From contig JACIWX010000004.1 in assembly GCA_014360755.1 (NCBI GenBank), forward strand, positions 13,172 to 77,171: DNA of 64,000 bases, given 5' to 3'. The first letter of the stretch is position 1, and each line of letters begins with the position of its first letter. Source of the stretch: Chloroflexota bacterium. GTDB taxonomy: Bacteria; Chloroflexota; Anaerolineae; UBA2200. The position numbers and the translations under genes are program-made. Below are positions 8,389 through 47,460 of the stretch, piece after piece. Under the pieces are notes generated by a model. That model had not been told where the DNA came from. It searched no databases and saw only the letters and a program-made list of their open reading frames with translations.

Positions 8389-8417
8389 TTGACCATAAGG
8401 GCATAGCGTGCTATACT
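8389..8417 (+). promoter_or_regulatory. Candidate sigma70-type promoter (extended -10) for pfkA
   Basis: TTGACC (8389-8394), 17 nt, TGcTATACT (-10 at 8412-8417). Confidence 0.5.
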
Positions 8418-8539
8418 TGCTGACAGGGCAGGGAACATTCATTCTGATTTGCAAGGAGTTTGCTGCCCGCCTTGTGAGTGGTAGCAGAGTGAGCGTGGTG
8501 ACCTCATCGGTTTAATGCGCAAATGGATTGGAGGGGAGT

Positions 8540-9587: not shown

Positions 9588-10346
9588 ATGAAAAAGGTTG
9601 GACTGAGAGAAGTGCTCAATCTGCTTGCCTTTCTTGGCACAGTTACTGTAAACGGCTTAGCCAATGCTTTGCCCATTAATGGCCAGACCACGGGGGAGAT
9701 ATCCGATCGTTTCCAGGTTTATTTCGTCCCGGCGGGCTATGTTTTCTCCATTTGGGGGCTAATTTATCTGGGGCTATTGGGGTTTGTTGTGTATCAACTG
9801 CTGCCCACGCAAAGAAGCAGCCAGCGACTAGGGCGCATTGGCTATTGGTTTGTCCTGAGCTGTTTAGCAAATAGTCTATGGATTCTCCTCTGGCACTATG
9901 AGTTCTTTGCGCTGACCGTAGCGGTGATGCTGATCCTCCTTATCTCGCTTATTGCCATTTACCTGCGCTTGGACATCGGCCGCGTGCAGGTTGCAACAGC
10001 CGAGAAGTGGCTGGTAGACACCCCATTTAGTATTTACCTGGGCTGGATCACGGTAGCGACCGTGGCGAATGTCACAGCGCTTCTATCGTATTGGAATTGG
10101 AGTGGCTGGGGCATCGGTGCGCAGGTCTGGGCGGTCATCATGCTGGTCATCGCCACAGCACTAGCGGCAGCAATGAGCTTGACCCGCCGCGATATTGCCT
10201 ATGCCCTGGTCATTGTGTGGGCTTTTGTCGGTATTGCCGTCAAGCAAGGCGGGACACCACTCGTGGTTTGGAGCGCTGCATTGCTGGCAGTGATGGTGGC
10301 GGCCATAGGGGCGATCGGTGTGCTGCGGAGAAAGCCGGTAGTGTAA
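9588..10346 (+). CDS. Polytopic Trp-rich membrane protein, TspO/MBR-related
   Basis: About 7 hydrophobic segments; the N-terminal pattern NGLANALPINGQTTGEISDRF..FVPAGYVFSIWGLIYL is as in long TspO-like proteins. AAGGAGG Shine-Dalgarno. Confidence 0.5.
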   Translation: MKKVGLREVLNLLAFLGTVTVNGLANALPINGQTTGEISDRFQVYFVPAGYVFSIWGLIYLGLLGFVVYQLLPTQRSSQRLGRIGYWFVLSCLANSLWILLWHYEFFALTVAVMLILLISLIAIYLRLDIGRVQVATAEKWLVDTPFSIYLGWITVATVANVTALLSYWNWSGWGIGAQVWAVIMLVIATALAAAMSLTRRDIAYALVIVWAFVGIAVKQGGTPLVVWSAALLAVMVAAIGAIGVLRRKPVV

Positions 10347-10360
10347 CAAGCAGCAACATT

Positions 10361-10514
10361 GAGAGTGTTGAAAAAGCCCTTTCAGTGTCATGCTGAACGA
10401 AGTGAAGCATCTCACAGTACTTGGGAAAATACGGCTAAAGTTACGCGAGACCCCTTCGTTATACTCAGGGCAGGCTCTTCGCTTGCTCAGGGTGACAAGA
10501 TTTTCAACACTCTC
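10361..10514 (+). mobile_element. MITE-like palindromic repeat, copy 1 (154 bp)
   Basis: Terminal inverted repeats gagagtgttgaaaa / ttttcaacactctc. Flanked by direct repeats aacatt (10355-10360 and 10515-20). Near-identical blocks occur at 31553-31730 and, inverted, at 44528-44667. Confidence 0.8.
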
Positions 10515-10545
10515 AACATTGAGAGATCAAGAAAATGCGGTGGAA

Positions 10546-12399
10546 ATGGTCATCCCGCTGAGGAGCAGACATCACCGAAATGATTGGCTTGTTGATGCAG
10601 TGCTGTGCATCTCCATAGCGGGCTTGGCTTGCTCACTATATGTGCACACGTTGGCACCGTCGGTGTTGATCAGCGATTTGGGTGAGTACCAGTTTGTTCT
10701 GTACGAACTGGGTATCCCCCATCCTACCGGTTATCCTCTATATGTCCTTTTGGGCTATCTGTGGAGCCGTTTGCCCATTGGTTCAGTAGCGTACCGTATC
10801 AACTTGCTTTCTGCTGTCTTGGGAGCGGTAACGCTTGTACTTGTGTACCTGGGGTTACGGGATTGGACAAGGTACCGAGGAGTTGCTCTTGGTTTGACCC
10901 TCTTTTTCGCTGTGACGCCCACCTTTTGGTCTCAGATGCTCGTTGCCGGTAGCTATCCACTGAACGCGCTGCTTTTTGCACTGCTCCTCTACTTAGTTTT
11001 GTGTTACCTGGAGGATAGAGTGCGTGTAGAGTGGCTGCTGTTCGTGTTTGGGCTGGGGCTGGCGCATCACCGCACGATGATCCTGGTTACTCCAGCGTTG
11101 TTATATCTAATCTGGCAACGTCGCCAAGAGCGCTGGGAGTGGAAACGCATGCTAAAGGGAGTAGGATATCTGCTCGCACCTTTGCTGCTATATGCCTACA
11201 TTCCCATTCGCGCCTTCCAGCTCGGTCGCGATGATCTGACAACTGTCCCGGCGTTAGTTTCCTTTCTTTCTGGCAGGGTGTTCTCTGGTTTATTATTTCA
11301 ACAAGGCTGGGCAGGGCTGCCTAGCCAAATCGCGAAGTGGGTTGGATGGACAGTGCAGGAGCTCACGCCAATAGGCGTCTTGCTTGCCTTAGTTGGTATT
11401 GGCGTAGCCTGGCGTCATTGCCGCCCTTTTAGTCAGTTTACTATATTGGCTTACCTGGGGCATCTGGCTTTCAACCTGAACTATTACATTGGCAACATTT
11501 ATATCTATTACATCCCGTCCTACATGATCCTGTTGTTTTGGGCAGGGAGTTCTCTCTATGGGGTGTGTCGCTGGTTGGAACAGGCGGCTGATAAACGCGG
11601 ATGGCTACAAGTTGGAATCAGCGGCATATTGCTGGCGAGTGCCCTCCTGCGAGCCGTTGCCATTTACCCGATGGTCGATATGAGCCACGAGTACACGATG
11701 GAGAACCTCTGGCTGGATGCTTTCGCACTCCCGTTGGCAAAGGGAGGGGCAGTGCTTGCCAACTGGAACAAGCATACCTCGTTGGTTTACTATCAGCGCG
11801 TGGAAAAGCGGCGACCTGATTTACAACCTTTCATCGCCACGGATGAAAACGTACACCGGGCTATGGCGGAGGGGCGCGCGCTGTATGCTGCTGATCTGCC
11901 TCCTACCTTGGACCCTTTTTCTCTTTCCTGTATGGGACCGCTGATCGAGATACGTCCCCGCCCTTACCATCTGGCTGATATTCCTATCGCTTTTCCCACT
12001 GATGTCGTATTCGGCGGGTTTCTTCGACTACACGGTTATGACTTTACTTACCTCCGCCGGGATGTAGAGGGAAATGAGCGTTACCTCGTTACTTTATACT
12101 GGTCCCTTGTTACACCTACAGAGCGCACACTGGCTGTTTCGGTGCGTCTGTATACAGGCAACAGCCTGCTCATCCAGGTGGATGGCTTGCCTGTGCGGGG
12201 GTATTATCCACTGGCACGTTGGCAGCCAGGAGAGGTAGTCATTGACCAGTATATACTGCGCTTATCACAAGCACAGCAACCGCTGGATAAGAAGGCGGAG
12301 TTAGAGGTAGTTGTCTATACCCCCGATGACATGCAACCGTTGGTCGTAGAAGGAACGGAAGAAAAAGCATACAGGCTGGGCATAGTTGTCTTGCCATAG
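10546..12399 (+). CDS. DUF2723 family membrane protein (TMEM260/PMT-like putative glycosyltransferase)
   Basis: N-terminal DLGEYQFVLYELGIPHPTGYPLY motif and many TM segments. The ORF track start at 10390 lies inside the MITE, so the ATG at 10546 is used. Confidence 0.8.
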   Translation: MVIPLRSRHHRNDWLVDAVLCISIAGLACSLYVHTLAPSVLISDLGEYQFVLYELGIPHPTGYPLYVLLGYLWSRLPIGSVAYRINLLSAVLGAVTLVLVYLGLRDWTRYRGVALGLTLFFAVTPTFWSQMLVAGSYPLNALLFALLLYLVLCYLEDRVRVEWLLFVFGLGLAHHRTMILVTPALLYLIWQRRQERWEWKRMLKGVGYLLAPLLLYAYIPIRAFQLGRDDLTTVPALVSFLSGRVFSGLLFQQGWAGLPSQIAKWVGWTVQELTPIGVLLALVGIGVAWRHCRPFSQFTILAYLGHLAFNLNYYIGNIYIYYIPSYMILLFWAGSSLYGVCRWLEQAADKRGWLQVGISGILLASALLRAVAIYPMVDMSHEYTMENLWLDAFALPLAKGGAVLANWNKHTSLVYYQRVEKRRPDLQPFIATDENVHRAMAEGRALYAADLPPTLDPFSLSCMGPLIEIRPRPYHLADIPIAFPTDVVFGGFLRLHGYDFTYLRRDVEGNERYLVTLYWSLVTPTERTLAVSVRLYTGNSLLIQVDGLPVRGYYPLARWQPGEVVIDQYILRLSQAQQPLDKKAELEVVVYTPDDMQPLVVEGTEEKAYRLGIVVLP

Positions 12400-31552: not shown

Positions 31553-31730
31553 GAGAGTGTTGAAAAAGCCCTTTCAATGTCATGCTGAACCTTCGCCCTG
31601 AGCCTTGCTCTGAGCGAAGCGAAGGGAAAGCGAAGGGGAAGTGAAGCATCTCGCAGTACTTGGGAAAATACGGCTAAAGTTACGCGAGGCCCTTCGCTTT
31701 GCTCAGGGTGACAGGATTTTCAACACTCTC
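31553..31730 (+). mobile_element. MITE-like palindromic repeat, copy 2 (178 bp)
   Basis: Same termini as copy 1 plus an extra internal hairpin module (cttcgccctgagc...gcgaagg). Flanks are gtggcac / gtggtac. Confidence 0.8.
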
Positions 31731-34941: not shown

Positions 34942-35030
34942 GAGAGCGCTGAAAAAGTCCGCACTGTCATGCTGAGGCGAAGCCGAAGCATCTCGAAGAA
35001 ATGGTGACCTCTGAATGTTTTTCAACGCTC
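34942..35030 (+). mobile_element. MITE-like repeat, short derivative, copy 4 (89 bp)
   Basis: Termini gagagcgctgaaaaag / tgtttttcaacgctc, core gtcatgctgag..gaagcatctc. Flanked by tagatt on both sides. Confidence 0.65.
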
Positions 35031-35105: not shown

Positions 35106-36062
35106 TCATCGGTTGATGGAAGCAGCCATGCGCCGATAGGTATGGCGGTGGCCACGGATAGCGAGCGAAAAAGCGATGATATTTTCTGGAATGGCCATGC
35201 CGCTGTATCCTGCGTCGCCAATGTGCAGAATGTCCGCTCCGGTCATCTTGCTCAGCAAAGCGATGCGTCGCACCGTATCCTCATCGCTGCCTTCCTGGGA
35301 TGTGCCTATCGCCGTCATGGCTAGTTTGCCCAGGTTGTGCGCTAGGTCCACAAGGGCTTTGATCGCCTCCAGTGTGGCGCCTGGTGTGGTGCCAGGAGCA
35401 GGTACGAGGATCACGTCCGCCCCGGCTGTGGCGAACTGCTCCACTGCTTCTGCGGAGACAATGCCCGCTGCGCCCAGCCCCGCTCCATGCATTTTCCCCG
35501 CAATAATGATGAGACGGTCGCCAAGGGCTTGGGCAATCTCTGCAGTTGCCTGCGCGATGGTTTCTGTGGAGACACCAGAACCTGGGTTGCCCGTTAACAC
35601 CAGGTAATCAGCTCCCAACTCCCATGCCCGGCGAGCATTCTCCACTGTCGCTACCCGCCCGCGGTACTCTTCGCTGATCCTCTCCGCTGGCACTGGCTCC
35701 AGGTTGATGCCAACCGGTCGGCCTACTAACGTTTTCACCTCATGGATCGTCATATTGATGCCTGCAGGTAACTTTGGAAGTATGGGCACTCCCGGCAACG
35801 TTGGCAGTGCCCCTTTGCGATAGCCCATGACCAAGGGCTGGAGCACGTCATAGACATTGAGGGTGATTAAATCCGCACCGCATGCAGCGGCGACCTCAGC
35901 GTTGGTCACGCCATCTATCAATGGCAGTGTGGTACAGACCACCTCCGCGCACACAGTACGGCCCTCAGCGAGGCGGATGCTTTCCAAAAGATCCGCTTTA
36001 CTCATGGCACAAAAATCACTGGCATAAGCATCAAGGATTCGTTTTACCACGTTTTTCTCCAT
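35106..36062 (-). CDS. Conserved hypothetical protein, probably a TIM-barrel enzyme, last gene of the PTS operon
   Basis: A recurrent strand-end pattern GAD(L/Y/V/I) occurs five times (GADLITLN, GADYLVLTG, GADVILVP, GADILHIG). No catalytic motif recognised. Confidence 0.4.
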   Translation of the reverse strand: MEKNVVKRILDAYASDFCAMSKADLLESIRLAEGRTVCAEVVCTTLPLIDGVTNAEVAAACGADLITLNVYDVLQPLVMGYRKGALPTLPGVPILPKLPAGINMTIHEVKTLVGRPVGINLEPVPAERISEEYRGRVATVENARRAWELGADYLVLTGNPGSGVSTETIAQATAEIAQALGDRLIIIAGKMHGAGLGAAGIVSAEAVEQFATAGADVILVPAPGTTPGATLEAIKALVDLAHNLGKLAMTAIGTSQEGSDEDTVRRIALLSKMTGADILHIGDAGYSGMAIPENIIAFSLAIRGHRHTYRRMAASINR

Positions 36063-36070
36063 CCAAACGT

Positions 36071-37354
36071 TTACGACTTCTTGCCGAAGAACTGGGGCAG
36101 ATATTCTTTGTTTGCCTCCAGCAACTCTGTCAGCATGGCTTTCGCTACGGAATAGGAAGGCACAAGCGGGTGAGTGAACAGGGCTTTGAGTGCTGTCTCT
36201 CGTGAACCGCTCACGCCAGCCTCTACCGCATACTGCTCATAGGCTTTGACGGTTTGCACCAAGGGCCGGATGATTTCTGGCAGATGGCCGACATGAAGTG
36301 GGCTGACTCCATGTGCTCCCACAACGCAAGGCACTTCAATCGAAGCAGATGCAGGCAGGTCAAGGATGCACCCATTGTTGCGAGTAATGACAATCTGCAC
36401 ATCCCGCCGGTCGGTGAGCAAGGAAGTGATCAAGCGCACAGCCATTTCCGAATAGTAGGCGCCACCGCGTTTCATCAGTTCTGGTGGCTTAACTACCAAA
36501 TTCGGATCCGCGTACATCTTCAGCAATTCCCCTTCCACTTCCTTGACCACCTCACCGCGTGTCTTCCCTGCTCTCTGGGCTTCCCGTACCGCTTCATCGT
36601 GATAGTAATAATAGGCAAGGTAGCCAATGGGCAGCATGCCCAGGAGGCGTATCAGGTCCGGCTCAAAGGGGAAATGACCGTGCTGGCTTGCCAGTTGTAC
36701 CAATTCTTCGATTTCCAGTGCTCGTCCTTTAACCCAGGCTCTGCGAATCCATGCCAGGTGGTTGAGCCCCACCCAATCCAGAAATACTTCTTCGTCAGGG
36801 ACACCAGCATATTCGGCAATCGCCATAATCGCATTGATGGGGTTGTTGCATAGCCCGACAACCTTCAGCGGGGTGTGGGTAAGCAGGGCTTCTGTAATAA
36901 TGCCGGAGGGGTTAGTGAAATTGAGGTACCAGGCATTGGGCGCGTAGCGCTCTACATCACGGGCAATGTCGAGGGTTGCTGGAATCGTGCGCATCGCTTT
37001 CATGAAGCCGCCAGGGCCTGTAGTCTCCTGGCCGATAACATTGTATTTCAGGGGGATCTTCTCGTCACGGATGCGGGCATCCACGCCACCGACACGGATC
37101 TGAGAGATGATGAAATCAGCGCCTTCAATCGCCGCCGGGCGGTTGGTGTAAGTAGCAACCGTTGTTTCCAGGCCAGCGTGAGCGGCCATGCGTCTCACCA
37201 GCCCGCCTACTAACTCCAATCTCTCAGCATTGATGTCGTACAGGGCAATTTCTCCGACGCTGAGCTGCTCACGTCGTTGGATAAACCCGTCTACGAATTC
37301 CGGGGTGTATGTGCTGCCTCCACCAATGACCGTAATTTTCTGGATAGGGATCAT
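36071..37354 (-). CDS. 6-phospho-beta-glucosidase, glycoside hydrolase family 4
   Basis: KITVIGGGSTYTPEF NAD motif, VVGLCNNP metal/catalytic Cys motif; size is typical of CelF/ChbF. Confidence 0.88.
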   Translation of the reverse strand: MIPIQKITVIGGGSTYTPEFVDGFIQRREQLSVGEIALYDINAERLELVGGLVRRMAAHAGLETTVATYTNRPAAIEGADFIISQIRVGGVDARIRDEKIPLKYNVIGQETTGPGGFMKAMRTIPATLDIARDVERYAPNAWYLNFTNPSGIITEALLTHTPLKVVGLCNNPINAIMAIAEYAGVPDEEVFLDWVGLNHLAWIRRAWVKGRALEIEELVQLASQHGHFPFEPDLIRLLGMLPIGYLAYYYYHDEAVREAQRAGKTRGEVVKEVEGELLKMYADPNLVVKPPELMKRGGAYYSEMAVRLITSLLTDRRDVQIVITRNNGCILDLPASASIEVPCVVGAHGVSPLHVGHLPEIIRPLVQTVKAYEQYAVEAGVSGSRETALKALFTHPLVPSYSVAKAMLTELLEANKEYLPQFFGKKS

Positions 37355-37719
37355 TTTCCTGCTCCTTGCGCCTTCTCTAGCTCGGCAATGCGCTTGTGCA
37401 GTTTGATAAACTGTTCAGCATAGTCAATCTCTGCCCAAGCCAGAAGAAGGAGGTCTAGCGCGTGTACCAATAAGATAGAAAAGGGAATCTGTTCTCCGCG
37501 TGCTTCGCGATGCAAGATATCCGCTTGCATCTTATGCGCAGCCAATTGTGCTTCGTTCGCTCGCTTCAGGGCTTCTTCTGCCCGTTCCCAATCGTTCTCA
37601 GCAGCATAGTCTGCTGCCTCTTTGGCAGCGCAGCGTGCATCCCCGCCATGGATAATCAGTGTACACAACGTTTGTTCCCAATCAGTGCCGCAAGTTTGTG
37701 TTGACATGCATTCCTCCAA
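37351..37719 (-). CDS. PTS lactose/cellobiose-family EIIA component
   Basis: IIHGGDARCAAKEA, AHKMQADIL and LLVHALD match the EIIA-Lac pattern. The stop overlaps the GH4 start (ATGA). Confidence 0.8.
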   Translation of the reverse strand: MEECMSTQTCGTDWEQTLCTLIIHGGDARCAAKEAADYAAENDWERAEEALKRANEAQLAAHKMQADILHREARGEQIPFSILLVHALDLLLLAWAEIDYAEQFIKLHKRIAELEKAQGAGK

Positions 37720-37783
37720 AAGATAACAACTTTGCCTTGATAGCGCGTTGGTTTGCCTTCCAAACTGGAAGGGCTTAGCGCGA

Positions 37784-38515
37784 TCACGATGGCTCTGGCG
37801 CTGTTTGTTTCTCGCCAGCGCTGGCAGCGGACACTGCGCTGGCGCTCATGACGCAACGGAAGCCCGTGTAATCGTTGCGGCGGCGAGGGGTATAAGGCAG
37901 CCGCGAAAAGCAACGGGCAGAATCGTGCGTGGTATTCCATGACCCACCGCGCATAGGTTGCAAGACACGCCCTCCTGGCCCGGAGGTCCATTCCCAGACA
38001 TTGCCAGACATATCTGCCACGCCGTAGGGGCTATCGCCCTGGGGCGAAAATTGGCCTACAGGTGTCGTATCAAAGATACGCGTTTCGCTGGTGTTCGCAC
38101 GGGACTTGTCCCATTCGTTGCCCCATGGATATATACGCCCGTCTGTGCCTCGTGCGGCTTTCTCCCATTCATCCTCAGTCGGCAACCTTTTACCAGCCCA
38201 TTTGGCATAGGCAGCAGCGTCATCCCAGTTGACCTGCACAACGGGATGGTTCTCCTTGCCTTCAGGGATCTTGCCCTGTCGCCAATGCGGTGGTGGAGGA
38301 TAGCCAGTGGCATCCACAAATCTCTTGTACTCCGCGTTGGTTACAGGGTATTTGTCTATATAGAAAGCCTCGACATAGACGAGCTTTTTCTCTTCGCCTT
38401 TGAGGAATTCACCAGCAGGGATATAAATCATCTCCTTGCCGTCTTTAGCGATGATCACAGGAGGGGGTTGTTGCACCTTTTTCTCTCCTTCCTTTTCGTT
38501 ATTGTTTTGATCCAA
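37784..38515 (-). CDS. Formylglycine-generating-enzyme (SUMF1/EgtB-like) domain protein, cytoplasmic
   Basis: YIDKYPVTNAEY, HPVVQVNWDDAAAYAKWAGKRLPTEDEWEKAARG, NVWEWT and RGGSW. No signal peptide. Confidence 0.85.
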   Translation of the reverse strand: MDQNNNEKEGEKKVQQPPPVIIAKDGKEMIYIPAGEFLKGEEKKLVYVEAFYIDKYPVTNAEYKRFVDATGYPPPPHWRQGKIPEGKENHPVVQVNWDDAAAYAKWAGKRLPTEDEWEKAARGTDGRIYPWGNEWDKSRANTSETRIFDTTPVGQFSPQGDSPYGVADMSGNVWEWTSGPGGRVLQPMRGGSWNTTHDSARCFSRLPYTPRRRNDYTGFRCVMSASAVSAASAGEKQTAPEPS

Positions 38516-38545
38516 TAAACATTTTAACTGCAGTGCTGTTCGTAG

Positions 38546-39328
38546 TCACTTACGCGCTTTCTTGCGTTTGACCGTCCGTGCGGGCGCAGGCAACTGTCCC
38601 TGCAACCACCACCACCCTACGGCAACTAGTACGCACTCAAAAGCCAAAGCAAGCACAGTGGGGAGTTGTCCCCTTCCTGCCAGCCCAAGGGTGATGGCGT
38701 TGTAAACCAGTTCGATCGCCGCATGGATCAACATGGCATAGAGCAGTAGATGCAGTTTTTTGTTCAGGATAGCATAGCCTGCTACTGCTCCCAAGCAGGC
38801 ATTGAAAAACAGCAGGGATAGCCGGTCTACCACTGAGACAACCGCAGACAAACCTAGGTCCGGTAGGGAGCGGGCTGCCGTCTCTGCGAGCAAAGCAGTG
38901 GAGGTGTCACCAAAAAGCAAACGGATGCCTACTCCAATCAACGCAAAACCCAGGAAAATCCTGGTAATCATACCTACCCCAAGCCCTACGGCGATGCCTG
39001 AGGGCACAAGTGCCTGGCCTGTTAAACGTTTGTATTTTAGCACAAGGTACTTCATGCCTTCGACAAAGAAACCCGTCAGCAGTGCCGTAATAGTGAACTG
39101 GATCACGGCACGGTCCGCTCCACCGGAAGCAGCCAGAATTTGACGGGACAGGCTGGTGAAAAAGTTCAGCGGCAGAAGGGCCAGCAGTAGGCCGCCTGCG
39201 CCCCACCAAATTAGCGCTCGGTTCACGGTGGGCATACGCTGTAAGAAAAGGAACATGACATAGCCTGGCAACAGCACAAAGAGGAAGCCTTGGCTGCAGA
39301 GCAAAATCCCTTTCAGAGCCATGTGCAT
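38546..39328 (-). CDS. Polytopic membrane protein of unknown function
   Basis: About 7 hydrophobic helices and a basic C-terminal tail. No motif recognised. Confidence 0.5.
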   Translation of the reverse strand: MHMALKGILLCSQGFLFVLLPGYVMFLFLQRMPTVNRALIWWGAGGLLLALLPLNFFTSLSRQILAASGGADRAVIQFTITALLTGFFVEGMKYLVLKYKRLTGQALVPSGIAVGLGVGMITRIFLGFALIGVGIRLLFGDTSTALLAETAARSLPDLGLSAVVSVVDRLSLLFFNACLGAVAGYAILNKKLHLLLYAMLIHAAIELVYNAITLGLAGRGQLPTVLALAFECVLVAVGWWWLQGQLPAPARTVKRKKARK

Positions 39329-39334
39329 CCCTTT

Positions 39335-40780
39335 CTACCAGCCATATTTTGCCGGACCCCACTCCTTGCGTTCTACTTCTTGCTTGAGCAGGAGCAGGCT
39401 ATTCTCGGGCACATCCCCGCTGATCATCACGCCGGGGCCAATCGCCGAGTATGCACCCACTTTGGAACCGGGCATAAAGATGGCGTTCACTCCGGTGCGG
39501 CAAAAGTCGCCAATGAACGTGGCGCAGGAAGCATACTGTGGGGTCTCCCAGCGGCCTTTTACTCTATGGGGTTGGGGTTGATCGTCGAAACGCAGAGTGC
39601 CGAACACTGTGCCCGCGCCAATGTCCACTGCTTCGCCTAACACTCCCCATACTTCACATTGATGCATTACGGTGCTGCGCCCAAACAAAACCCCGTGGAT
39701 TTCCGCACAGTATCCAATTTTGCAACGTGGGCCTATGCTGGTGCGCTCTCCGAGCAGGGCGTAATCCTTTATCTGTGTGTGCGGGCCGATATACGTATTG
39801 CCTCCGATAATCGCACCGTTGGTAACCACTGCATCCTTGTCAATCCAGACATTGCCCTCAATCACCACTCCTGGGCCAATAACGGCGTTCTCGCCTAACA
39901 CGACATGGCCCTGAATGTCCGCCCGTTCGGAAATCCGAGCAGAGGAATGGATGATGTTAGTGGACAGGGCTTGGCCCAGGAAACCAAGCCACACGTAATT
40001 GGCTGCAAGGATATCCCAAGGCCGGTCTATATCCAGAGCGAAAGCAACAGGTTCCACTGCCCGCACGGGCAGGCCATCCTCAATCATCATCTGTATGGTC
40101 TGAGCCAAATCAGCCTCATTCTGAGGAGGCATGCCCCCAGAAGGGATAGCGGCGACATAGCCAGGATGGGCGTCCAGGTAGGGCAAGATCATTTTGGGCT
40201 GGAAAACAAACGCGCCAGCCAGGCGATGGGTGACGCTATGGCGGGGATGGGCAATCACCTCTTCCACGCAGCCTTTTTGTACCCGTATCGCTAGGTACAT
40301 GGTTTGATTTTCCAGTTCGTGCAGTGGTGCGGCCAGGACTAGTGGGGTGCCTGGATCTTCTCTGTGTGCCGAAAGCAGCTTGGATAGTGTCTCTGGATCC
40401 CAGAGCATATCGCCATAGAGGACCAGCACAGGCTCATCCTCTGCGCTTTGCAAAGCGTAGTGCAAAGCCACGGCTGTGCCTTGTGGGGGGTCCCAAGCCA
40501 GAACCTGGACATTGGAACTCGGCGTTGAGTCTCCAAGCCGTCCCATGCCTGCTGCGCCAAGCGATTGCTCGCCTTTGCCCGAGACGAGATGCCTCAAATG
40601 TGCCTCAAAGCGCGAGGTCGCTACGACGATGATGGAGTCAATGCCTTCTGCCGCGAGGCTACGGATCTGCTGCTGCAGCAATGGCGCCCCACCAACCGGT
40701 ACAGCGGCTTTGGGCCGTGTTGTGCTAAAGGGCCAGAGCTTGCTGCCTGTTCCTTGAGCCAGAATGATCGCCCTTCTCAC
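39335..40780 (-). CDS. Sugar-phosphate nucleotidyltransferase fused to a left-handed beta-helix (hexapeptide) domain, GlmU-like architecture
   Basis: N-terminal AIILAQGTGSKLWP...PKAAVPVGG; C-terminal hexapeptide repeats (IGPGVVIEGNVWI..., IGPRCKIGYCAEI...). The GTG start overlaps the stop of the upstream EIIB (GTGA). Confidence 0.75.
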   Translation of the reverse strand: MRRAIILAQGTGSKLWPFSTTRPKAAVPVGGAPLLQQQIRSLAAEGIDSIIVVATSRFEAHLRHLVSGKGEQSLGAAGMGRLGDSTPSSNVQVLAWDPPQGTAVALHYALQSAEDEPVLVLYGDMLWDPETLSKLLSAHREDPGTPLVLAAPLHELENQTMYLAIRVQKGCVEEVIAHPRHSVTHRLAGAFVFQPKMILPYLDAHPGYVAAIPSGGMPPQNEADLAQTIQMMIEDGLPVRAVEPVAFALDIDRPWDILAANYVWLGFLGQALSTNIIHSSARISERADIQGHVVLGENAVIGPGVVIEGNVWIDKDAVVTNGAIIGGNTYIGPHTQIKDYALLGERTSIGPRCKIGYCAEIHGVLFGRSTVMHQCEVWGVLGEAVDIGAGTVFGTLRFDDQPQPHRVKGRWETPQYASCATFIGDFCRTGVNAIFMPGSKVGAYSAIGPGVMISGDVPENSLLLLKQEVERKEWGPAKYGW

Positions 40781-41112
40781 GATTGCTTCTTCCGTTGCAG
40801 AACATTCATGATTTGTTCAAATAACTTTTCCCCGTCCATCATGCCGTACGTAACCGATTCGATGTCTTCGACGGGAATGCCCAGGGGAGCTGCAGCTTGC
40901 ATGATGGAGCGCTTCTTGAAGCGTACCTGCGGTGCGACCAAGACCACATCCACAGGCTTGGCTGCAAAATCATAGACTGCTGCTTCGGCTGCGGAAAGCA
41001 AAACCATCTCCAAATCAGTTCCCTTGGCTTTGGCTGCTTCCTCCGTCCTAGCAGCTAGAAGGCTGGAAGATGCCCCCAAGGCACAGAACATGAGAACTTT
41101 GATTTTGTCCAT
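40777..41112 (-). CDS. PTS lactose/cellobiose-family EIIB component, copy 2
   Basis: KVLMFCALGASSSLL contains the phospho-Cys loop; 111 aa. Confidence 0.85.
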   Translation of the reverse strand: MDKIKVLMFCALGASSSLLAARTEEAAKAKGTDLEMVLLSAAEAAVYDFAAKPVDVVLVAPQVRFKKRSIMQAAAPLGIPVEDIESVTYGMMDGEKLFEQIMNVLQRKKQS

Positions 41113-41160
41113 TGTTCCCCCTTATTTGCTTGGATGGTTCATTTTACCACCAAATGGCGT

Positions 41161-41487
41161 TCATTTCTTCACCGCTTGCATAATCTGCTCGAATAGCTTT
41201 TCTCCATCCACCATGCCATATGTAACTGGGTCAATGCTTTGGACGACAATGCCCAATGGCTCAGCCATCTGAGCGATAGTGCGCCGCTTGTACACCACTT
41301 GCGGCGCAACCAAGACGATGTCCACTGCGCGTGCTTTAAAATCGTAGGTGGTTACCTCCGGCACAGGGATGGCATGTATCTCTAATTGGTGTCCACGCCG
41401 TTGTGCAGCTTCGATCGTGCTCGCCTCCAGCAGGCTGGAGGACATCCCTGCTGCACATACTAGCAGAACTTTATATACAGCCATCAT
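41161..41487 (-). CDS. PTS lactose/cellobiose-family EIIB component, copy 1
   Basis: KVLLVCAAGMSSSLL contains the phospho-Cys loop; paralogous to 40777-41112. Confidence 0.85.
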   Translation of the reverse strand: MMAVYKVLLVCAAGMSSSLLEASTIEAAQRRGHQLEIHAIPVPEVTTYDFKARAVDIVLVAPQVVYKRRTIAQMAEPLGIVVQSIDPVTYGMVDGEKLFEQIMQAVKK

Positions 41488-41554
41488 TGCCCCCTTACTC
41501 GCTATCCGGATCGGACTCGCTTTTCACAAAATTAGCGCTAGGCGCCCTAGTTTT

Positions 41555-42934
41555 TCAATGCAAGGAGGGGAAAGTGCCACCATGAGCCTGAATATAATCG
41601 TCCAGGATATGCTTGGCAATTTCGTAACTGGGCACCAGCGGATGCAAGGCTAGGGCGTTGAGAGCCAATTGATAAGAGGAAGAGAGAGTCGCTTCGATGG
41701 TGAGGCGTTCGTACTCCTTCACCTGCTTCATCAGGCCAAGGGCATGGTCAGGAACCGAACCAATGGCGATAGGGCGCACCACGGATTTGCCTAGGTAACA
41801 AGTGACTTCTACCACATCTTGTTCCCTCATGCCTGCGATAGCCCCTCGGTTCGGGACATTCACAATAGAAACACCTGGTCGCATACCACTGAGGCACTCC
41901 ATTACTCCTAGGGCAACTCCTTCATACCCTTCCTCTTCTATAGCCGACCTTATTTCTTCTTTCGCGAAGGGCTTGTGGCCGGTCTCGGTGGCCATGTACG
42001 TCTCGCCGCGCTTCACGAGATAGGAGATATAAGCCTCCTGAACCTGGTCTTCGTTCCCCTCTTCCCGCAGCCGCTTTAGTTCGGCAAAGAGCCAGTCATT
42101 GAGTTCCTGGATTTGTTCCCCACGCGTTTTTTCCGCGCTCAATATATGCTGCACCGCTTCTTCGGTATGATAATAAAAGTACAAGTACTCGTTAGGGATC
42201 ATGCCCAACGCACCGAGGAAGTCGGGGGGAAATGGCAAGTGCGCTATGGTCATACCGCTTTGCTGCAAGGCTGCAATCACTTCGGGCAGGATGTCCCGCC
42301 CACCGAGATAAACTGCCTTTACCCAACCCAGGTGGTTGAGGCCGAAATATTCGAGGAACAGGTCTTCAGGCGGCACATGCAAGGCAGCAGCCATGGCCCG
42401 CTGCATGGCGGCAGGGTTATCACAGATGCCAATGACACGTGGAAAACCTGCGTAGTTGATGACGGCTTCGGTAATCAGCCCAGATGGGTTGGTGAAGTTG
42501 ATTAACCAGGCTTTTGGAGCTAGTTCCTCGATTAGTTTCACATACTGGAAAATCACCGGGATGGTGCGCAATGCCATGGCAAAACCGCCGGGGCCTGTGG
42601 TCTCTTGTCCCAGCACGCGGTAGCGTAGGGGCACACGTTCATCAATGACGCGGGAGCGGATGCCTCCGACGCGAAAGGTGGTCAACACATAGTCAGCACC
42701 CTCGATGGCTTCGCGAGCGTCTGTTGTCCAGATGGTGCGGAAGGAAACTTCCTGCTGACGCAATACCGGCTCGCAGACCATGCGGATCAAGTCGAGGTGC
42801 TCGGCGTTGACGTCCATCAAGTATAGATCGGTCAGCCGCAGTTTTTCCTGTCGGCGCAGTATCCCGCGCAGCATAAGCGGGGTGCGCACACCCGCTGTGC
42901 CAATAATCGTTAGTTTCAACTGGTTACCTCTCAC
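41555..42934 (-). CDS. Glycoside hydrolase family 4 paralog with an atypical N-terminal dinucleotide motif
   Basis: Collinear with the other GH4 (VIGICDNP, NFTNPSG), but the N-terminus reads LTIIGTAGVRTPLM instead of IGGGSTYTPE. Confidence 0.8.
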   Translation of the reverse strand: MRGNQLKLTIIGTAGVRTPLMLRGILRRQEKLRLTDLYLMDVNAEHLDLIRMVCEPVLRQQEVSFRTIWTTDAREAIEGADYVLTTFRVGGIRSRVIDERVPLRYRVLGQETTGPGGFAMALRTIPVIFQYVKLIEELAPKAWLINFTNPSGLITEAVINYAGFPRVIGICDNPAAMQRAMAAALHVPPEDLFLEYFGLNHLGWVKAVYLGGRDILPEVIAALQQSGMTIAHLPFPPDFLGALGMIPNEYLYFYYHTEEAVQHILSAEKTRGEQIQELNDWLFAELKRLREEGNEDQVQEAYISYLVKRGETYMATETGHKPFAKEEIRSAIEEEGYEGVALGVMECLSGMRPGVSIVNVPNRGAIAGMREQDVVEVTCYLGKSVVRPIAIGSVPDHALGLMKQVKEYERLTIEATLSSSYQLALNALALHPLVPSYEIAKHILDDYIQAHGGTFPSLH

Positions 42935-43010
42935 CGCAGGATTAGGAATAAGGGAGGGTGCTGCTTAAGCACCCTCCCCTATGCCCGTGAAATTGGAGGA
43001 GAAAAGTGGG

Positions 43011-44282
43011 CTAGGCTCCCTCTTTCTCCAATACCTGGCGCTCCCAGGCGCGGAAGAACGGATACCAAATAATGCCTGGGATGATGAACTCGGTGAAGAT
43101 GACCAAGATGCTAGCCCTTATATCATATCCCGTTGCTAGGTACATGAGGATGGGCGAGGGCAATGTCCACGGCGCAGCGACCGCTGTAGCCCTGACCAAA
43201 CCAAGCACGTGGGCCGCGTATGCGACGGTGGCATTGATAAAGGTAATCACGATGAATGGGATGGCCATCACGGGGTTAAAGATGACCGGCGTGCCAAAGG
43301 TAATGGGCTCATTGATGTTGAAAATGCCAGGCCAAATGCCCAACCACCCCACGCGGCGCAGGCGGGCTGACTTGGATCGGAGCATGTAAATGGCCAATGG
43401 CAACGTGGCTCCAGAACCGCCAGGCACGACATAGCTGCGGAAGAGTTCCGTGTAAATCCACGGCAGGGGCTTGCCGGCAGCCAATGCCGCCGCGTTGTCT
43501 GCCAGGTTGCTGGTCCAAATCGGCGAGAGCACGATGCCAATGGTCAGATCGCCGTGAATGCCCAGTGTCCACAGGAAGCCATGCAGCGTCTCCGCGATGG
43601 CAACTGCTACATAGGAGGAGGCAGCAGGCACGATCTTGGACAAGGCCACCACTACTCCGTGGGCGAGGTCAATCCCCAATACAACGCGCACGATCCAAGC
43701 CAACGCAAAGACGGCAATCATGGGGATCAGGGCGATGAAAGCGGCTGTAATGGATGGCGGCACGCCAGCGGGCATTCTGATGACCAGGTTGCGCTTCACA
43801 AACCAATTGTAAATCTCTACGGTCAGCAGGCTGACGATGATGGCGGTGAACAAACCTTGGTTATCGAAATAGGTGCCGGGCAATCCCTGCTCACCCCATG
43901 CGCCCAAAATAGGGCTAGCGATAGTGATAAAGGCTAGCAATGATAGAGCAGAGGGCATCAGAGGATCCAGGCCTTTGCGCCGTGCGAGATGATAAGAAAT
44001 AGTAACTGACGCAAAGAGGGACAACAAACCATAAGCCATGTTAAACGGCACCCACAGCTTGCTGGCTAGGTCCGGGTTCGCATCCAGGTAATCCAACCAG
44101 GATTGTACAGGGAACTGCAGGAACAGGAGGCTAAATGCGCCAGTGATCAAGAGGGGCATCAACCCAGCCAAGCCATCGCGTACAGAAGCCAGATGGGGCT
44201 GGTCAAACAGAGGCGCCAATGCCTCCATTGCCTCAGACAGCCTATCAGCCCAACTTTTCTTTTCAGCAGATGCAGTAGCCAC
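43011..44282 (-). CDS. PTS lactose/cellobiose-family EIIC permease
   Basis: 423 aa and polytopic; N-terminal pattern ...SVRDGLAGLMPLLITGAFSLL and the general EIIC type-3 layout. GTG start with AAGGAG upstream. Confidence 0.85.
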   Translation of the reverse strand: MATASAEKKSWADRLSEAMEALAPLFDQPHLASVRDGLAGLMPLLITGAFSLLFLQFPVQSWLDYLDANPDLASKLWVPFNMAYGLLSLFASVTISYHLARRKGLDPLMPSALSLLAFITIASPILGAWGEQGLPGTYFDNQGLFTAIIVSLLTVEIYNWFVKRNLVIRMPAGVPPSITAAFIALIPMIAVFALAWIVRVVLGIDLAHGVVVALSKIVPAASSYVAVAIAETLHGFLWTLGIHGDLTIGIVLSPIWTSNLADNAAALAAGKPLPWIYTELFRSYVVPGGSGATLPLAIYMLRSKSARLRRVGWLGIWPGIFNINEPITFGTPVIFNPVMAIPFIVITFINATVAYAAHVLGLVRATAVAAPWTLPSPILMYLATGYDIRASILVIFTEFIIPGIIWYPFFRAWERQVLEKEGA

Positions 44283-44484
44283 TTGAGTACTCCTTTCTTT
44301 TAATAATGATTGTTTTCATTCGGAAAGTTAGCTCAGTAACCAATCCTTATGTTTCCCCTTGCATCACCTCCTTGTGCCGCAAGATAGGGCCCGCTTGGGC
44401 TTGCTGAGATGCCTGAGCGCAAACAAGTGGACCCGCTAATCTACTGAACTGCGATGGGACAAGAAGCACATTGCCTACGATAGT

Positions 44485-44513
44485 ATATTACATGAAAATA
44501 CCCTGTCTGTCAA
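44485..44513 (-). promoter_or_regulatory. Sigma70-type promoter of the PTS operon
   Basis: Minus strand reads TTGACA (44513-44508), 17 nt, TAATAT (44490-44485); this leaves a leader of about 195 nt. Confidence 0.55.
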
Positions 44514-44674: not shown

Positions 44675-44798
44675 GAGGTATTGAAAAAGCCTCTCGATGT
44701 CGCCCTGAAAATCTCCGTGCCGCCGCAGATCGGCATAGGAGCCCGATTTGCTGAACGGGTCATGTCCAGTCTACGCGAGATGCTTCACTTCGGTTCAG
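44675..44798. repeat. Degenerate or rearranged relative of the MITE family
   Basis: Starts gaggtattgaaaaagcctctcgatgtc (like the left end) and ends with the inverted gaagtgaagcatctcgcg block. It includes the stop codon of the adjacent gene. Confidence 0.4.
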
Positions 44799-46078
44799 TT
44801 GGCATCCTCCTGCACCAGTCGCGCTACTTTTTGCCCCATCTCCACTGCATAATTTGATCCCCTATCCCAAGGATAGACCTGGCTCATGCTGGCGAAATAT
44901 AGACCCGCTACAGGGGTGCGGACGGCTGGGATTTGTCGGGAATAGTAAACGGGCACAACCGGTTGCGCATATTTGCGCCGAAACAGCCAGCTTTTGCGCA
45001 CCCAAGATGGTTCAAACGCCGCATTAAACGCAGTCATGGCAGGCAGGAACTCTTGCAAGATTTCCTCTTCGCTCATGCGAAAGTAACGGTGCTCTGGCGG
45101 CGGATAGGCCCCCAGGTAAACAATGTAGTCACCACCATAATGTTCTGGAGACTGATAGTTCGTGTGCTCTACAAAAGCCAGGAAGGGGAATTCGCCTTTG
45201 GGCAGATTGATCCAATAGAAGCCATCCGTAACGGGCCGCTTCAAAGCGAGGATGAGAGTTAAAGCACCAATAGCGCGTAACTCGCGTATCTGCGCGGCAT
45301 AATGCTCTGGCAAGTCCGTTGCTAGGTGGAGCATCGTCTGCGGTGGAACCGTCGCAATCACCGCCTCAAACTCATGCACCCCTTTTGCTTCATATAAACG
45401 GAGCCTTGGTGCCGTTCCTGTGATACGATATACTGGCGTATTCAGGCGGATGACTCCACCTTGAGCCTGCACTTTGTCCATCAGGGCATTGATGAGCGTC
45501 TGATAGCCCCCAATGTAGTAACCCAAGCGCGGCGTGCGCTTGTGAAAGCGCGCCCAGAACCAAGCCATGTTGACTTCTCGGTAATAGTCTCCGAACTTGC
45601 CCGCTAGCAGCGGCTCCCAGAGCGCTTGATAGGCTCGTTGTCCTACGTAGCGAGGGAGCCACTCGTGCGCTGTGACGCGTTCCAGCGGTTGCCAGTTCTG
45701 GGAAAGCCGCAAGTAGAGGATCACGAGCCCAACGCGCATTTTGTCCACAAAGGATAGATATGGATAGCGCAGCACAGCAAGCGGGCTGTCAAAAGCATGG
45801 GCACCGCCGTTTTGCCAGATGGCGGTGATCGGCCTGGGGAAGAACACTTTGTCTGCAATCCCCAGCTCTCGATTCAGGTTCAATAGGATGTGGTCCGAGG
45901 CGAAGATGTGATGATAAAACATCTCCAGTGGCCACTCCCAATTTTCGTCTTTGAAAGTTCCACTCAAGCCGCCAGCCTGGGGTGCTTGCTCAAAAACGGT
46001 TACTTTGTGCCCTTGTTTGCCCAACTCATATGCGGCTGTCAGGCCCGTGAAGCCCGCACCAATGATGCCAATCTCCAT
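44795..46078 (-). CDS. FAD-dependent oxidoreductase (amine oxidase / phytoene desaturase-like)
   Basis: MEIGIIGAGFTGLTAAYEL dinucleotide motif at the proposed start. The ORF track start at 46222 would overlap the SWIM gene. Confidence 0.8.
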   Translation of the reverse strand: MEIGIIGAGFTGLTAAYELGKQGHKVTVFEQAPQAGGLSGTFKDENWEWPLEMFYHHIFASDHILLNLNRELGIADKVFFPRPITAIWQNGGAHAFDSPLAVLRYPYLSFVDKMRVGLVILYLRLSQNWQPLERVTAHEWLPRYVGQRAYQALWEPLLAGKFGDYYREVNMAWFWARFHKRTPRLGYYIGGYQTLINALMDKVQAQGGVIRLNTPVYRITGTAPRLRLYEAKGVHEFEAVIATVPPQTMLHLATDLPEHYAAQIRELRAIGALTLILALKRPVTDGFYWINLPKGEFPFLAFVEHTNYQSPEHYGGDYIVYLGAYPPPEHRYFRMSEEEILQEFLPAMTAFNAAFEPSWVRKSWLFRRKYAQPVVPVYYSRQIPAVRTPVAGLYFASMSQVYPWDRGSNYAVEMGQKVARLVQEDAN

Positions 46079-46119
46079 ATCCTCATTGCTCCTATCCCAT
46101 TCACCGGCATTGCCGCGTG

Positions 46120-46359
46120 CTACTGCCCCTTCTCTGGCAGCATGCCAGCCAGAATCCGTTCCATAGCCATTGTATGACTGCATACCCCTCGCTGCGCGAA
46201 GAAGTGACAGCCGCATTGCCACAATCCATGATCGTAACGAACGGTGTAGGTATCATGGTCGCCCCGAAAAGTCACAGCGAATTGCAGAAAACACACACGA
46301 TCCTTTTCTCCCGCGTAGCGCCTTGCTTTTTCGATCTTGCTCACCATCCCCGAGTCCAT
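46120..46359 (-). CDS. Small SWIM zinc-finger protein
   Basis: The CxC...CxH signature is WQCGCHFFAQRGVCSH; 79 aa. Confidence 0.65.
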   Translation of the reverse strand: MDSGMVSKIEKARRYAGEKDRVCFLQFAVTFRGDHDTYTVRYDHGLWQCGCHFFAQRGVCSHTMAMERILAGMLPEKGQ

Positions 46360-46368
46360 ACGTCCTCC

Positions 46369-47460
46369 TTACTGACAATCAGCCTGAGTTTCACTCAACC
46401 TTTTCTTGACAAAATTAATGTTCCCAATAGACCATGGATCAACCTGATACAACATAGCCAAATAAAAAGCGACGTAATCACCAAAATGCACTGCTGACAA
46501 CATCTGTGCGAGTTTGCTGCGACCGCGCGCTTCAATTATATCGAAAGAGAGGCCATCCCGGTGCAGCAAATCGCGCACAATCTCGAAACGCATTTGTACG
46601 CGGGGATGGTTCAATGAGGAAACCAGCATCACCACATGGACGTGTTGTGGCAAATCGGATGGAGCGGGGTAGCCTACCACTGAGTTGTGGCAGAGCTCAG
46701 GCAATACGTCGAAGAAAGCCCATGTTTTCGCGTTTTCATTGAACTGTCCCTTCCAACGACGTGCAACTTCGCTCAAGTGCTCCGCGCCATATACTACAGG
46801 CATCCGCCCGTAGAGCTTTTGGGCGAGCGATTTGGCTGCATTTTCTGGGGCAGGCACTGTCTCTCGAATCTCTTCCTGCCATTGGCGCATGACTGTGATG
46901 GCTTCAGCGACATCGGCTGACTTGTCGCTCACCAACCCCAGGCGCTGGACAATGCCCAGCAAAGACATGAAGGCGTAGCCAAGCGCCGCCCGAGGCTGTG
47001 TCTTGTAATGATATAAATACAGGGGCAGGCCATGCGCGCGGGTGCGCTGTGCCAGCTCACCACCTGTGGCAATGGACAGCAGTTTTGCACCACGCCGTAA
47101 GGCTTCTTCAAAGCCGCTCAGCGTTTCTTCTGTGTTCCCGGAATAACTGCAGGCAATAACCAACGTGCGCTGGTCAACGAAAGCTGGCACGCCATAGTCC
47201 CTGTGCACAATGATTGGGAGCGAACACTCCTCGAGCAATAGACAGCGCAGTAAATCGCCGCCAATTGCTGAACCACCCATGCCTAGGATGACCACTTGAT
47301 CCACCTGCTGATAGCTATCTGGCAATGCCAGCCCTTGGATTTCTTTCCAAGCCTCCGCGCATTGCTGGGGCAATCCTGCGATATGGTTCAGCATTCCCTG
47401 TGGATCAAACGCGGAAAAGTTTTGGTAAGCATCCAGGTCAAGCATGGTTTCCTCTTTCAC
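46369..47460 (-). CDS. Bifunctional phosphoglucose/phosphomannose isomerase (SIS domain)
   Basis: LGMGGSAIGGDL and SYSGNTEETL SIS motifs; the N-terminal pattern is typical of the PGI/PMI family. The start could be the Met at 47445. Confidence 0.85.
   Translation of the reverse strand: MKEETMLDLDAYQNFSAFDPQGMLNHIAGLPQQCAEAWKEIQGLALPDSYQQVDQVVILGMGGSAIGGDLLRCLLLEECSLPIIVHRDYGVPAFVDQRTLVIACSYSGNTEETLSGFEEALRRGAKLLSIATGGELAQRTRAHGLPLYLYHYKTQPRAALGYAFMSLLGIVQRLGLVSDKSADVAEAITVMRQWQEEIRETVPAPENAAKSLAQKLYGRMPVVYGAEHLSEVARRWKGQFNENAKTWAFFDVLPELCHNSVVGYPAPSDLPQHVHVVMLVSSLNHPRVQMRFEIVRDLLHRDGLSFDIIEARGRSKLAQMLSAVHFGDYVAFYLAMLYQVDPWSIGNINFVKKRLSETQADCQ

Follow-up and report, generated by a model that had tools for sequence, protein, structure and literature searches.

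A conserved Lac-family PTS/GH4 gene cluster of Anaerolineae that includes a YhfC-like membrane protein and an FGE-fold protein with probable non-catalytic roles

Introduction

What could a polytopic membrane protein and a protein with the fold of the formylglycine-generating enzyme (FGE) be doing inside a gene cluster for sugar uptake by the phosphotransferase system (PTS)? The question is raised by ten genes in the genome of a Chloroflexota bacterium of the class Anaerolineae (GenBank assembly GCA_014360755.1). They lie within a stretch of 64,000 nucleotides (contig JACIWX010000004.1, positions 13,172 to 77,171 of the forward strand), which we call the window and whose positions are used throughout. 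An earlier note on this DNA, made from the letters and their open reading frames, had described the ten genes as a Lac/cellobiose-family PTS operon with unusual passengers. In this work we asked which genes are present, how constant their association is, and what the passengers may contribute. The answer that we consider probable, judging from sequences and structure models, is that the locus serves catabolism, as a Lac-family (cellobiose/chitobiose-type) PTS utilisation cluster typical of one clade of Anaerolineae, and that its YhfC-like membrane protein and FGE-fold protein form an accessory pair that is probably non-catalytic.

Gene content and conservation of the cluster

The ten genes run in the order EIIC, GH4a, EIIB1, EIIB2, a nucleotidyltransferase with a left-handed beta-helix (NTP-LbH), the YhfC-like gene, the FGE-fold gene, EIIA, GH4b and DUF7916 (Table 1), so that number, order and strand are as the earlier note gave them. 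The two start/stop overlaps that it had pointed out are genuine: EIIB2 and NTP-LbH share four nucleotides (40777-40780), as do EIIA and GH4b (ATGA, 37351-37354). The remaining intergenic gaps measure at most 77 nt after the starts were refined by reading of the DNA, which places the start of the FGE-fold gene at GTG 38476 (ribosome-binding site GGAGAG upstream) and that of EIIA at ATG 37706 (GGAGG upstream).

The locus has every sequence feature by which we judged membership of the Lac-family (TC 4.A.3) PTS/GH4 utilisation operons, with EIIC, EIIB and EIIA proteins of the proposed family and linked phospho-glycosidases. The permease is the sole PF02378 EIIC of the genome. The cysteine of the EIIB motif VCAAGMSSS is kept in both copies and does not vary among six orthologues and paralogues, and the histidine motif of EIIA can be read as LVHALD. 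Neither EI nor HPr was found in the window, as had been noted; part of its open reading frames was screened for regulators. Both are encoded in the genome (2.98 Mb, 94% complete; hereafter G000): EI on contig C20 (PEP-utilisers_N, 113 bits) and HPr on C18, the contig that also holds the window (PTS-HPr, 112 bits). Since the genome is rich in PTS genes and has both general components, their absence from the window is no problem. Beside the single Lac-family EIIC, there are six EIIC genes of the GAT type and two of the mannose family in G000 (contigs C12, C1, C20 and C17; loci L118-L125), a PTS richness that is unexpected for this phylum.

Table 1. Positions in the window of the genes and control elements of the cluster.
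Feature	Positions	Strand	Evidence
Ten co-directional open reading frames	35106-44282	minus	ORF calls, Pfam, NCBIfam
Predicted sigma-70-type promoter, TTGACA-17-TAATAT	44485..44513	minus	top site of scan, 10/12 matches
5' leader, about 196 nt	44283..44478	minus	from promoter to EIIC GTG at 44282
EIIC permease, Lac/cellobiose/chitobiose family	43011..44282	minus	PF02378, 167 bits; TIGR00410 lacE subfamily, 327 bits (cut-off 236)
GH4a, divergent 6-phospho-beta-glucosidase-like	41555..42934	minus	both GH4 Pfam domains
EIIB1 (EIIB paralogue 1)	41161..41487	minus	PF02302
EIIB2 (EIIB paralogue 2)	40777..41112	minus	PF02302; 56% identical to EIIB1
NTP-LbH, sugar-1-phosphate nucleotidyltransferase with left-handed beta-helix (archaeal GlmU/ST0452-like)	39335..40780	minus	PF00483, 70 bits; Hexapep, 83 bits
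YhfC/APH-1-like polytopic membrane protein	38546..39328	minus	PF10086, 27.5 bits (cut-off 24.2)
Candidate internal promoter in the YhfC-FGE gap, GTGACT-17-TAAAAT	38521..38549	minus	weak, 9/12 matches; consensus match only
Stand-alone FGE-fold protein	37784..38476	minus	PF03781, 173 bits
EIIA, Lac/cellobiose family	37351..37706	minus	PF02255, 84 bits
GH4b, canonical 6-phospho-beta-glucosidase type (LicH/ChbF-like)	36071..37354	minus	both GH4 Pfam domains
DUF7916 TIM barrel	35106..36062	minus	PF25509, 406 bits

The same gene order was found in seven other genomes of at least five families (G001, G002, G005, G010, G035, G074 and G208), so the neighbourhood is not unique to this strain. A DUF7916 search of 41 relatives led to the cluster in the first five of these, which belong to three families, and a search of the whole class for the YhfC-like protein, with matches in eight of 401 genomes, added G074 and G208. 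In all eight genomes the YhfC-like gene stands between EIIB-EIIB and FGE-EIIA. A scan of metagenomes with an alignment of seven YhfC-like sequences gave the same context for every locus with a relative of this protein (13/13), as far as the contigs reach. Metagenomes of oil fields and oil facilities, from three studies, contain the stretch of the window itself at 100%, and those of hot springs contain partial matches.

The earlier note had held that the non-PTS genes are embedded in the operon rather than adjacent to it by chance. They are embedded, conserved and, like the other genes, under purifying selection: in pairwise comparison with a close relative (dS about 0.15), dN/dS lies between 0.00 and 0.19 for all ten genes, with 0.06-0.13 for the YhfC-like and FGE-fold genes and 0.08-0.19 for NTP-LbH. 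The passenger genes are therefore not pseudogenes.

Comparison of the eight versions separates an invariant set (EIIC, GH4a, two EIIB, YhfC-like, FGE-fold, EIIA, GH4b and DUF7916) from genes that vary between lineages. NTP-LbH is a lineage-specific addition, present in G000, G001, G005 and G010, all of the taxonomic order to which G000 belongs (families f1 and f2), and absent from G035, G074, G208 and similar metagenome loci, in which the rest of the cluster is kept. Other genes are inserted elsewhere: a second EIIC and a YdjC/ChbG-family gene in G010; MupG, a DegT aminotransferase, a third GH4 and a SIS protein in G035; a histidine phosphatase in both G074 and G208, with a HAD_2 hydrolase and a divergent ROK-wHTH regulator in G074; and a Cof-type HAD in G005. 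Most of the variable genes encode enzymes that act in the metabolism of sugar phosphates and amino sugars.

In G005-like and L130-like loci an antisense gene with a PHP domain is inserted between the YhfC-like and FGE-fold genes, and the cluster must therefore form two transcription units in some lineages; a single ten-gene operon, as the earlier note had it, is not universal. This gene, of a phosphoesterase type, occupies positions 8403-9245 of locus L012 and 9891-10796 of locus L130, in two separate lineages, and the histidine-phosphatase genes of G074 and G208 fill nearly the same slot. In the window, the same junction contains the weak candidate internal promoter listed in Table 1.

The YhfC-like and FGE-fold proteins

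What had been described as a membrane protein can now be assigned to the YhfC family, both by its match to PF10086, which we take to be the former DUF2324, and by ESM features, which relate it to YhfC clusters (0.94, 219 shared). The pattern of helices, read with the positive-inside rule, predicts seven that span the membrane, with the N-terminus outside and the C-terminus inside. The AF2 model of the protein has a pLDDT of 94.7, and its best fold match is APH-1 of gamma-secretase (TM 0.61/0.67). APH-1 is the scaffold subunit of that complex and has no proteolytic activity of its own. The APH-1-like fold fits the published link between the families DUF2324, Rce1 and APH-1 (PMC5874806). Among proteins with the CPBP fold but without the conserved catalytic residues, APH-1 and LnsB have been proposed to be non-catalytic partners, and SpdC has been noted merely as being without key catalytic residues (PMC7387801).

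The protein considered here shows the same kind of loss. In the alignment, the canonical YhfC motifs EExxR, GHGGxE and HAxxD are all replaced in the PTS-linked clade, where the corresponding positions hold a variable (V/L/E)(E/G/A)xx(K/Q), GLG(V/A/F)G and variable residues in place of His and Asp; the Arg of the ER motif is the sole survivor of the protease motifs. The residues R31, R101, D141, S143, T144 and R169 are polar and invariant. The clade is small: 112 matching cluster representatives, 27 of which lie below 1e-30, out of 1.84 billion.

The FGE-fold protein is about 230 aa long, has no signal peptide and is predicted to be cytoplasmic. Solved FGEs score 82-90 bits against it, and among solved structures it is closest to CalU17, SUMF2 and ToxD; a literature search gave no mention of CalU17 and hence no published function for it. 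Its active-site segment, RGGSWNTTHDSARCFSRL, contains a single Cys, which is Thr in most of 28 aligned homologues. The catalytic copper-binding cysteine pair is missing, and SUMF2 and CalU17, when aligned with the protein, have lost it as well. The polar residues conserved among the 28 homologues are D, H, E, R and N.

This is the sole stand-alone FGE-fold gene in G000, and orthologues at 69-100% identity were found in cluster-bearing genomes only, the rest of the class having paralogues at 66% or less. A wider link of such proteins to YhfC or to the PTS was considered and rejected, as 80 loci from many phyla with FGE homologues of at most 59% identity had no PTS or YhfC neighbour (tblastn and HMM searches). 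FGE-fold domains are highly expanded in some related Anaerolineae, up to 20 matches per genome, and many of these lie within open frames of 600-1600 aa.

It is therefore unlikely, on present sequence evidence, that the YhfC-like protein acts as a protease or the FGE-fold protein as a formylglycine-generating enzyme. Because both passengers have lost the catalytic residues of their own families, we regard them as non-catalytic, or at the least non-canonical, proteins tied to this PTS, and a role in scaffolding or binding is the most economical model for this invariant pair and the one that we consider most likely.

Glycosidases, DUF7916 and the nucleotidyltransferase

The two GH4 enzymes differ in how closely they follow characterised members of the family. 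GH4b aligns over its full length with the 6-phospho-beta-glucosidases of G. stearothermophilus (5c3m/1s6y, 427 bits) and scores 268 bits to BglT of T. maritima. GH4a has the same 6-phospho-beta-glucosidases as its top solved relatives, at 294 bits in two stretches, with a segment of about residues 284-337 that is unmatched to them. At its N-terminus the motif IIG(T/A/V)(A/G)GVRTP replaces IGGGSTYTPE; this change is specific to the clade and kept across orthologues, and the ICD and LNH motifs still have their Cys and His.

The protein previously described as TIM-barrel-like is now assigned to DUF7916. Its AF2 model (pLDDT 91) shows the (beta/alpha)8 pattern, and fold searches returned generic TIM barrels only, many unrelated ones being equal at Z 14-18. 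A profile match to NanE (4utu; E 2e-5) covers only 59 residues and is out of register with a second stretch. The family has more than 6800 homologues, Bacillota included, and none in 14 model genomes; a literature search gave no mention of it. Residues K190 and H242 of DUF7916 are invariant. The family is a recurrent, uncharacterised companion of PTS genes. A paralogue in G010, about 50% identical, lies in another PTS operon (L015, G010:C8, 1892-10384), composed of EIIC-GAT, EIIA_2, SIS_2, a creatininase-family amidohydrolase, an RmlD-like reductase, DUF7916, an amidohydrolase, SIS_2 and SIS.

NTP-LbH has S. tokodaii ST0452 as its closest solved relative (E 1.6e-34). Among the profile models it comes nearest to those of archaeal GlmU type, and it falls below all equivalog cut-offs, with 205 bits against 292 for TIGR03992, 172 against 600 for NF041173 and 80 against 367 for TIGR01173.

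Proposed pathway and alternative explanations

From the genes present, their conservation and their linkage we infer a substrate class and an order of reactions. Phosphate would pass from EI and HPr to EIIA and then to one or both EIIB paralogues, and EIIC would import a beta-linked disaccharide that is phosphorylated on entry. The two GH4 6-phospho-beta-glycosidases would split the resulting 6'-phospho-disaccharide, GH4a probably serving a second or modified substrate, and DUF7916 would convert the released sugar phosphate. The YhfC-like protein may be a non-catalytic membrane scaffold and the FGE-fold protein a cytoplasmic binding module, both acting together with the permease, be it in assembly, in the hand-over of substrate or in regulation.

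An amino sugar or amino-sugar derivative is a plausible substrate, because the lineage-variable accessory genes include a GlmU-like gene here and YdjC, MupG, DegT, SIS, HAD, histidine-phosphatase and PHP genes elsewhere. The suggestion in the earlier note of a disaccharide containing an amino sugar gains from these relatives, which carry YdjC/ChbG-family, MupG, DegT, SIS, HAD and histidine-phosphatase genes within the cluster.

The complete linkage of the pair in eight of eight genomes and 13 of 13 metagenome loci, together with purifying selection, argues that it serves the transporter or the pathway. A more specific form of this idea, which we offer tentatively, is that the two proteins might be dedicated non-catalytic subunits of the PTS permease that assemble, gate or regulate EIIC, EIIB and EIIA.

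Some observations weigh against a catabolic cluster with a non-catalytic pair. The G000 cluster is without YdjC, NagA and NagB genes. The antisense PHP gene parts YhfC from FGE in two lineages, and therefore the pair need not be co-translated. Moreover, loss of family motifs is no proof of non-catalysis, and the invariant polar residues that are kept could belong to a new active site. This last point leads to a live rival, in our view a rather unlikely one, in which the FGE-fold and YhfC-like proteins are true enzymes with atypical active sites that, for example, modify or de-modify the sugar or a membrane-bound intermediate. The strong conservation of both passengers, with many invariant polar residues and the low dN/dS ratios given above, would be expected of enzymes. 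The FGE-fold enzymes EgtB, OvoA and SenA, which act on small molecules, appear among the profile matches; these use an added metal-binding DinB domain, which is absent from the FGE-fold protein of the cluster. The CPBP-fold protein LnsB is required for an acyl-transfer reaction (PMC7387801), but the YhfC-like clade has no conserved set of metal ligands. The closest solved relatives of the FGE-fold protein, furthermore, include SUMF2, which is without the FGE catalytic cysteines, and CalU17.

The earlier note had suggested that products of the disaccharide are re-activated to a nucleotide sugar. On this view the disaccharide would be cleaved and a product re-activated by the GlmU-like enzyme for the synthesis of cell wall or other glycans, so that the locus would serve recycling and not catabolism. 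The GlmU-like gene is intact, translationally coupled to EIIB2 and under purifying selection, its N-terminal nucleotide-binding motif region aligns with that of ST0452, and the G035 version contains MupG, a family of peptidoglycan-recycling enzymes. Re-activation nevertheless cannot be central to the locus, because this gene is lost from three genomes, and from similar metagenome loci, in which the cluster is otherwise kept. The protein also remains under every NCBIfam equivalog cut-off, and the cluster has no recognised phosphosugar mutase or anomeric kinase that would turn the 6-phosphate into a sugar-1-phosphate; the histidine-phosphatase and HAD_2 families found in G074 and G208 do include mutases, which makes these proteins candidates by family only. 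We regard salvage as improbable. In the remaining explanation, the FGE-fold protein would serve to mature a sulfatase, which in turn would remove sulfate from a sulfated disaccharide after import. This recalls a parallel gene set in S. pneumoniae (PMC3283741), and the ROK-wHTH regulator of the G074 version also speaks for it. It is largely refuted and has very little left to recommend it: the candidate maturase has no catalytic cysteine pair, no sulfatase exceeds the Pfam cut-off in the 94%-complete genome (the top PF00884 match reaches 20.8 bits against 25), and none occurs in the related clusters. For these reasons we rejected the FGE-fold protein as a sulfatase maturase, and we retain the catabolic cluster with a scaffold and a binding module as the probable reading.

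Promoter, leader and boundaries of the cluster

The promoter and the leader of about 195 nt that the earlier note had marked are borne out: the predicted site was the best-scoring one in a scan that covered 32-45 kb of the window, and the leader measures about 196 nt. Both boxes of the promoter and their spacing are kept in the two congeneric genomes G001 and G002, and the equivalent position in G010 reads TTGACA-17-TAAAAT.

The note had also proposed that the leader be compared with Rfam and examined for covariation. No Rfam family was found, the sole match at E values up to 10 being a chance miRNA. The predicted fold is not better than that of shuffled sequences (z-score -1.4), and covariation is without power with three close sequences only. 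The leader is 78-79% identical within the genus only and cannot be aligned in G005, G010 and G074. We consider the leader real, judging by its position and sequence, and see in it no evidence for a riboregulator. No PRD antiterminator or other PRD-domain regulator was found in the genome, and two ROK homologues in G000 align from residue 78-84 onward only, without the wHTH part.

Two candidate elements within the leader were rejected. A 13-bp palindrome, CTTGTGGCACAAG, present in the leaders of G001 and G002, was considered as an operator and is not clearly enriched in the genome, with 62 sites at up to two mismatches where a uniform model predicts about 33. A leader peptide was considered for the mini-ORF that follows the block AAGGAGGTGATG and that varies in length and sequence among the three congeners; since this short frame is variable, it is the nucleotide sequence and not a peptide that is conserved. 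The block itself (44347-44373, minus strand) is an extended Shine-Dalgarno-like sequence, presumably near-complementary to the 3' tail of 16S rRNA, and is part of a stretch of 40 nt that shows almost no differences between the three congeneric genomes.

At the downstream end, flavodiiron and hemerythrin genes follow DUF7916 in close relatives only (G002 and metagenome locus L132), and we rejected an extension of the operon to include them. A 66-aa open reading frame would join DUF7916 to the flavodiiron gene through 4-nt overlaps. It looks spurious, because it has no Pfam match and no counterpart in relatives and lies on a repeat at which contigs of four metagenome runs break. Directly upstream of the PTS promoter are a gene of the flavin amine-oxidase family and a bifunctional SIS gene of the PGI/PMI type (44795-47460, minus strand), which accompany the cluster in the nearest relative (L129) only and not in other genera.

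Breaks or cross-joins occur at 31590-31730, 34967-34994 and 44583-44638 in contigs from the four metagenome runs, among them DNA runs. Two runs that carry a metatranscriptomic label, available as contigs, are probably DNA too. The three places fit copies of one short repeat (a MITE), which flank the PTS cluster on both sides and also adjoin the promoter of a B12 operon.

Comparison with known systems

Loci that combine a Lac-family PTS with GH4 enzymes are textbook systems, and those nearest to the present one are the chitobiose operon of Escherichia coli, chbBCARFG, and a cellodextrin PTS of Enterococcus faecalis. The cluster resembles the former in having Lac-family EIIB, EIIC and EIIA proteins and a GH4 6-phospho-beta-glucosidase of the ChbF type. 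A gene of the ChbG/YdjC family, as in chb, is found in the G010 version only and not in the G000 cluster, which also has no ChbR/NagC regulator. The cluster differs further in its two EIIB and two GH4 genes and in the addition of DUF7916, YhfC-like, FGE-fold and GlmU-like proteins, none of which, to our knowledge, occurs in chb.

A duplicated EIIB, together with a duplicated EIIC and a single EIIA, is described for beta-glucoside uptake by the cellodextrin PTS of E. faecalis, in which the two EIIB proteins are said to be identical, whereas those of our cluster share 56% identity (PMC11976118). That locus is presented as three operonic structures, and the abstract of the paper mentions no FGE, YhfC or DUF7916 companions.

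A further parallel is an accessory PTS island of pneumococci (sph1922-1930), which contains a ROK regulator, a Lac-family PTS, a hypothetical TIM-barrel protein, a sulfatase, a sulfatase-modifying factor and a membrane protein (PMC3283741). The HHpred matches reported for its TIM-barrel protein (IMPDH, GMP reductase and NanE) resemble our results for DUF7916, its "sulfatase-modifying factor" adjoins the membrane protein, and its ROK regulator recalls that of the G074 version. The island encodes a sulfatase, and its membrane protein is TauE-like, whereas the present cluster has no sulfatase, a YhfC-like protein and an FGE-fold protein without the cysteine pair. We treat this parallel, drawn from published descriptions, as a lead only.

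In our literature search we found no described Lac-family PTS/GH4 locus that obligatorily includes an APH-1/YhfC-fold protein stripped of its motifs and a cysteine-less FGE-fold protein, nor any CPBP/APH-1-fold protein of this sort linked to a PTS permease. A solution would provide the first function for this clade of YhfC (DUF2324) and for its stand-alone FGE-fold protein, a biochemical context for DUF7916, and an indication of the sugars eaten by the PTS-rich Anaerolineae of oil reservoirs and hot springs.

Each member of the pair has precedents outside the PTS. The FGE-fold protein shares its fold and the loss of the copper-binding cysteine pair with SUMF2/pFGE, CalU17 and PvdO, and differs from them in being, by prediction, cytoplasmic, in its minimal size and in being genetically locked into a sugar PTS cluster. 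The YhfC-like protein resembles APH-1 and the S. aureus proteins LnsB and SpdC, in which the membrane fold of the CPBP superfamily is kept while the protease motifs are lost or strongly diverged; for APH-1 and LnsB a non-catalytic role as chaperone or scaffold beside another enzyme or complex has been proposed (PMC7387801). If the pair were indeed to consist of permease subunits, it would represent a previously unrecognised class of PTS accessory proteins and a bacterial counterpart of the scaffold role of APH-1.

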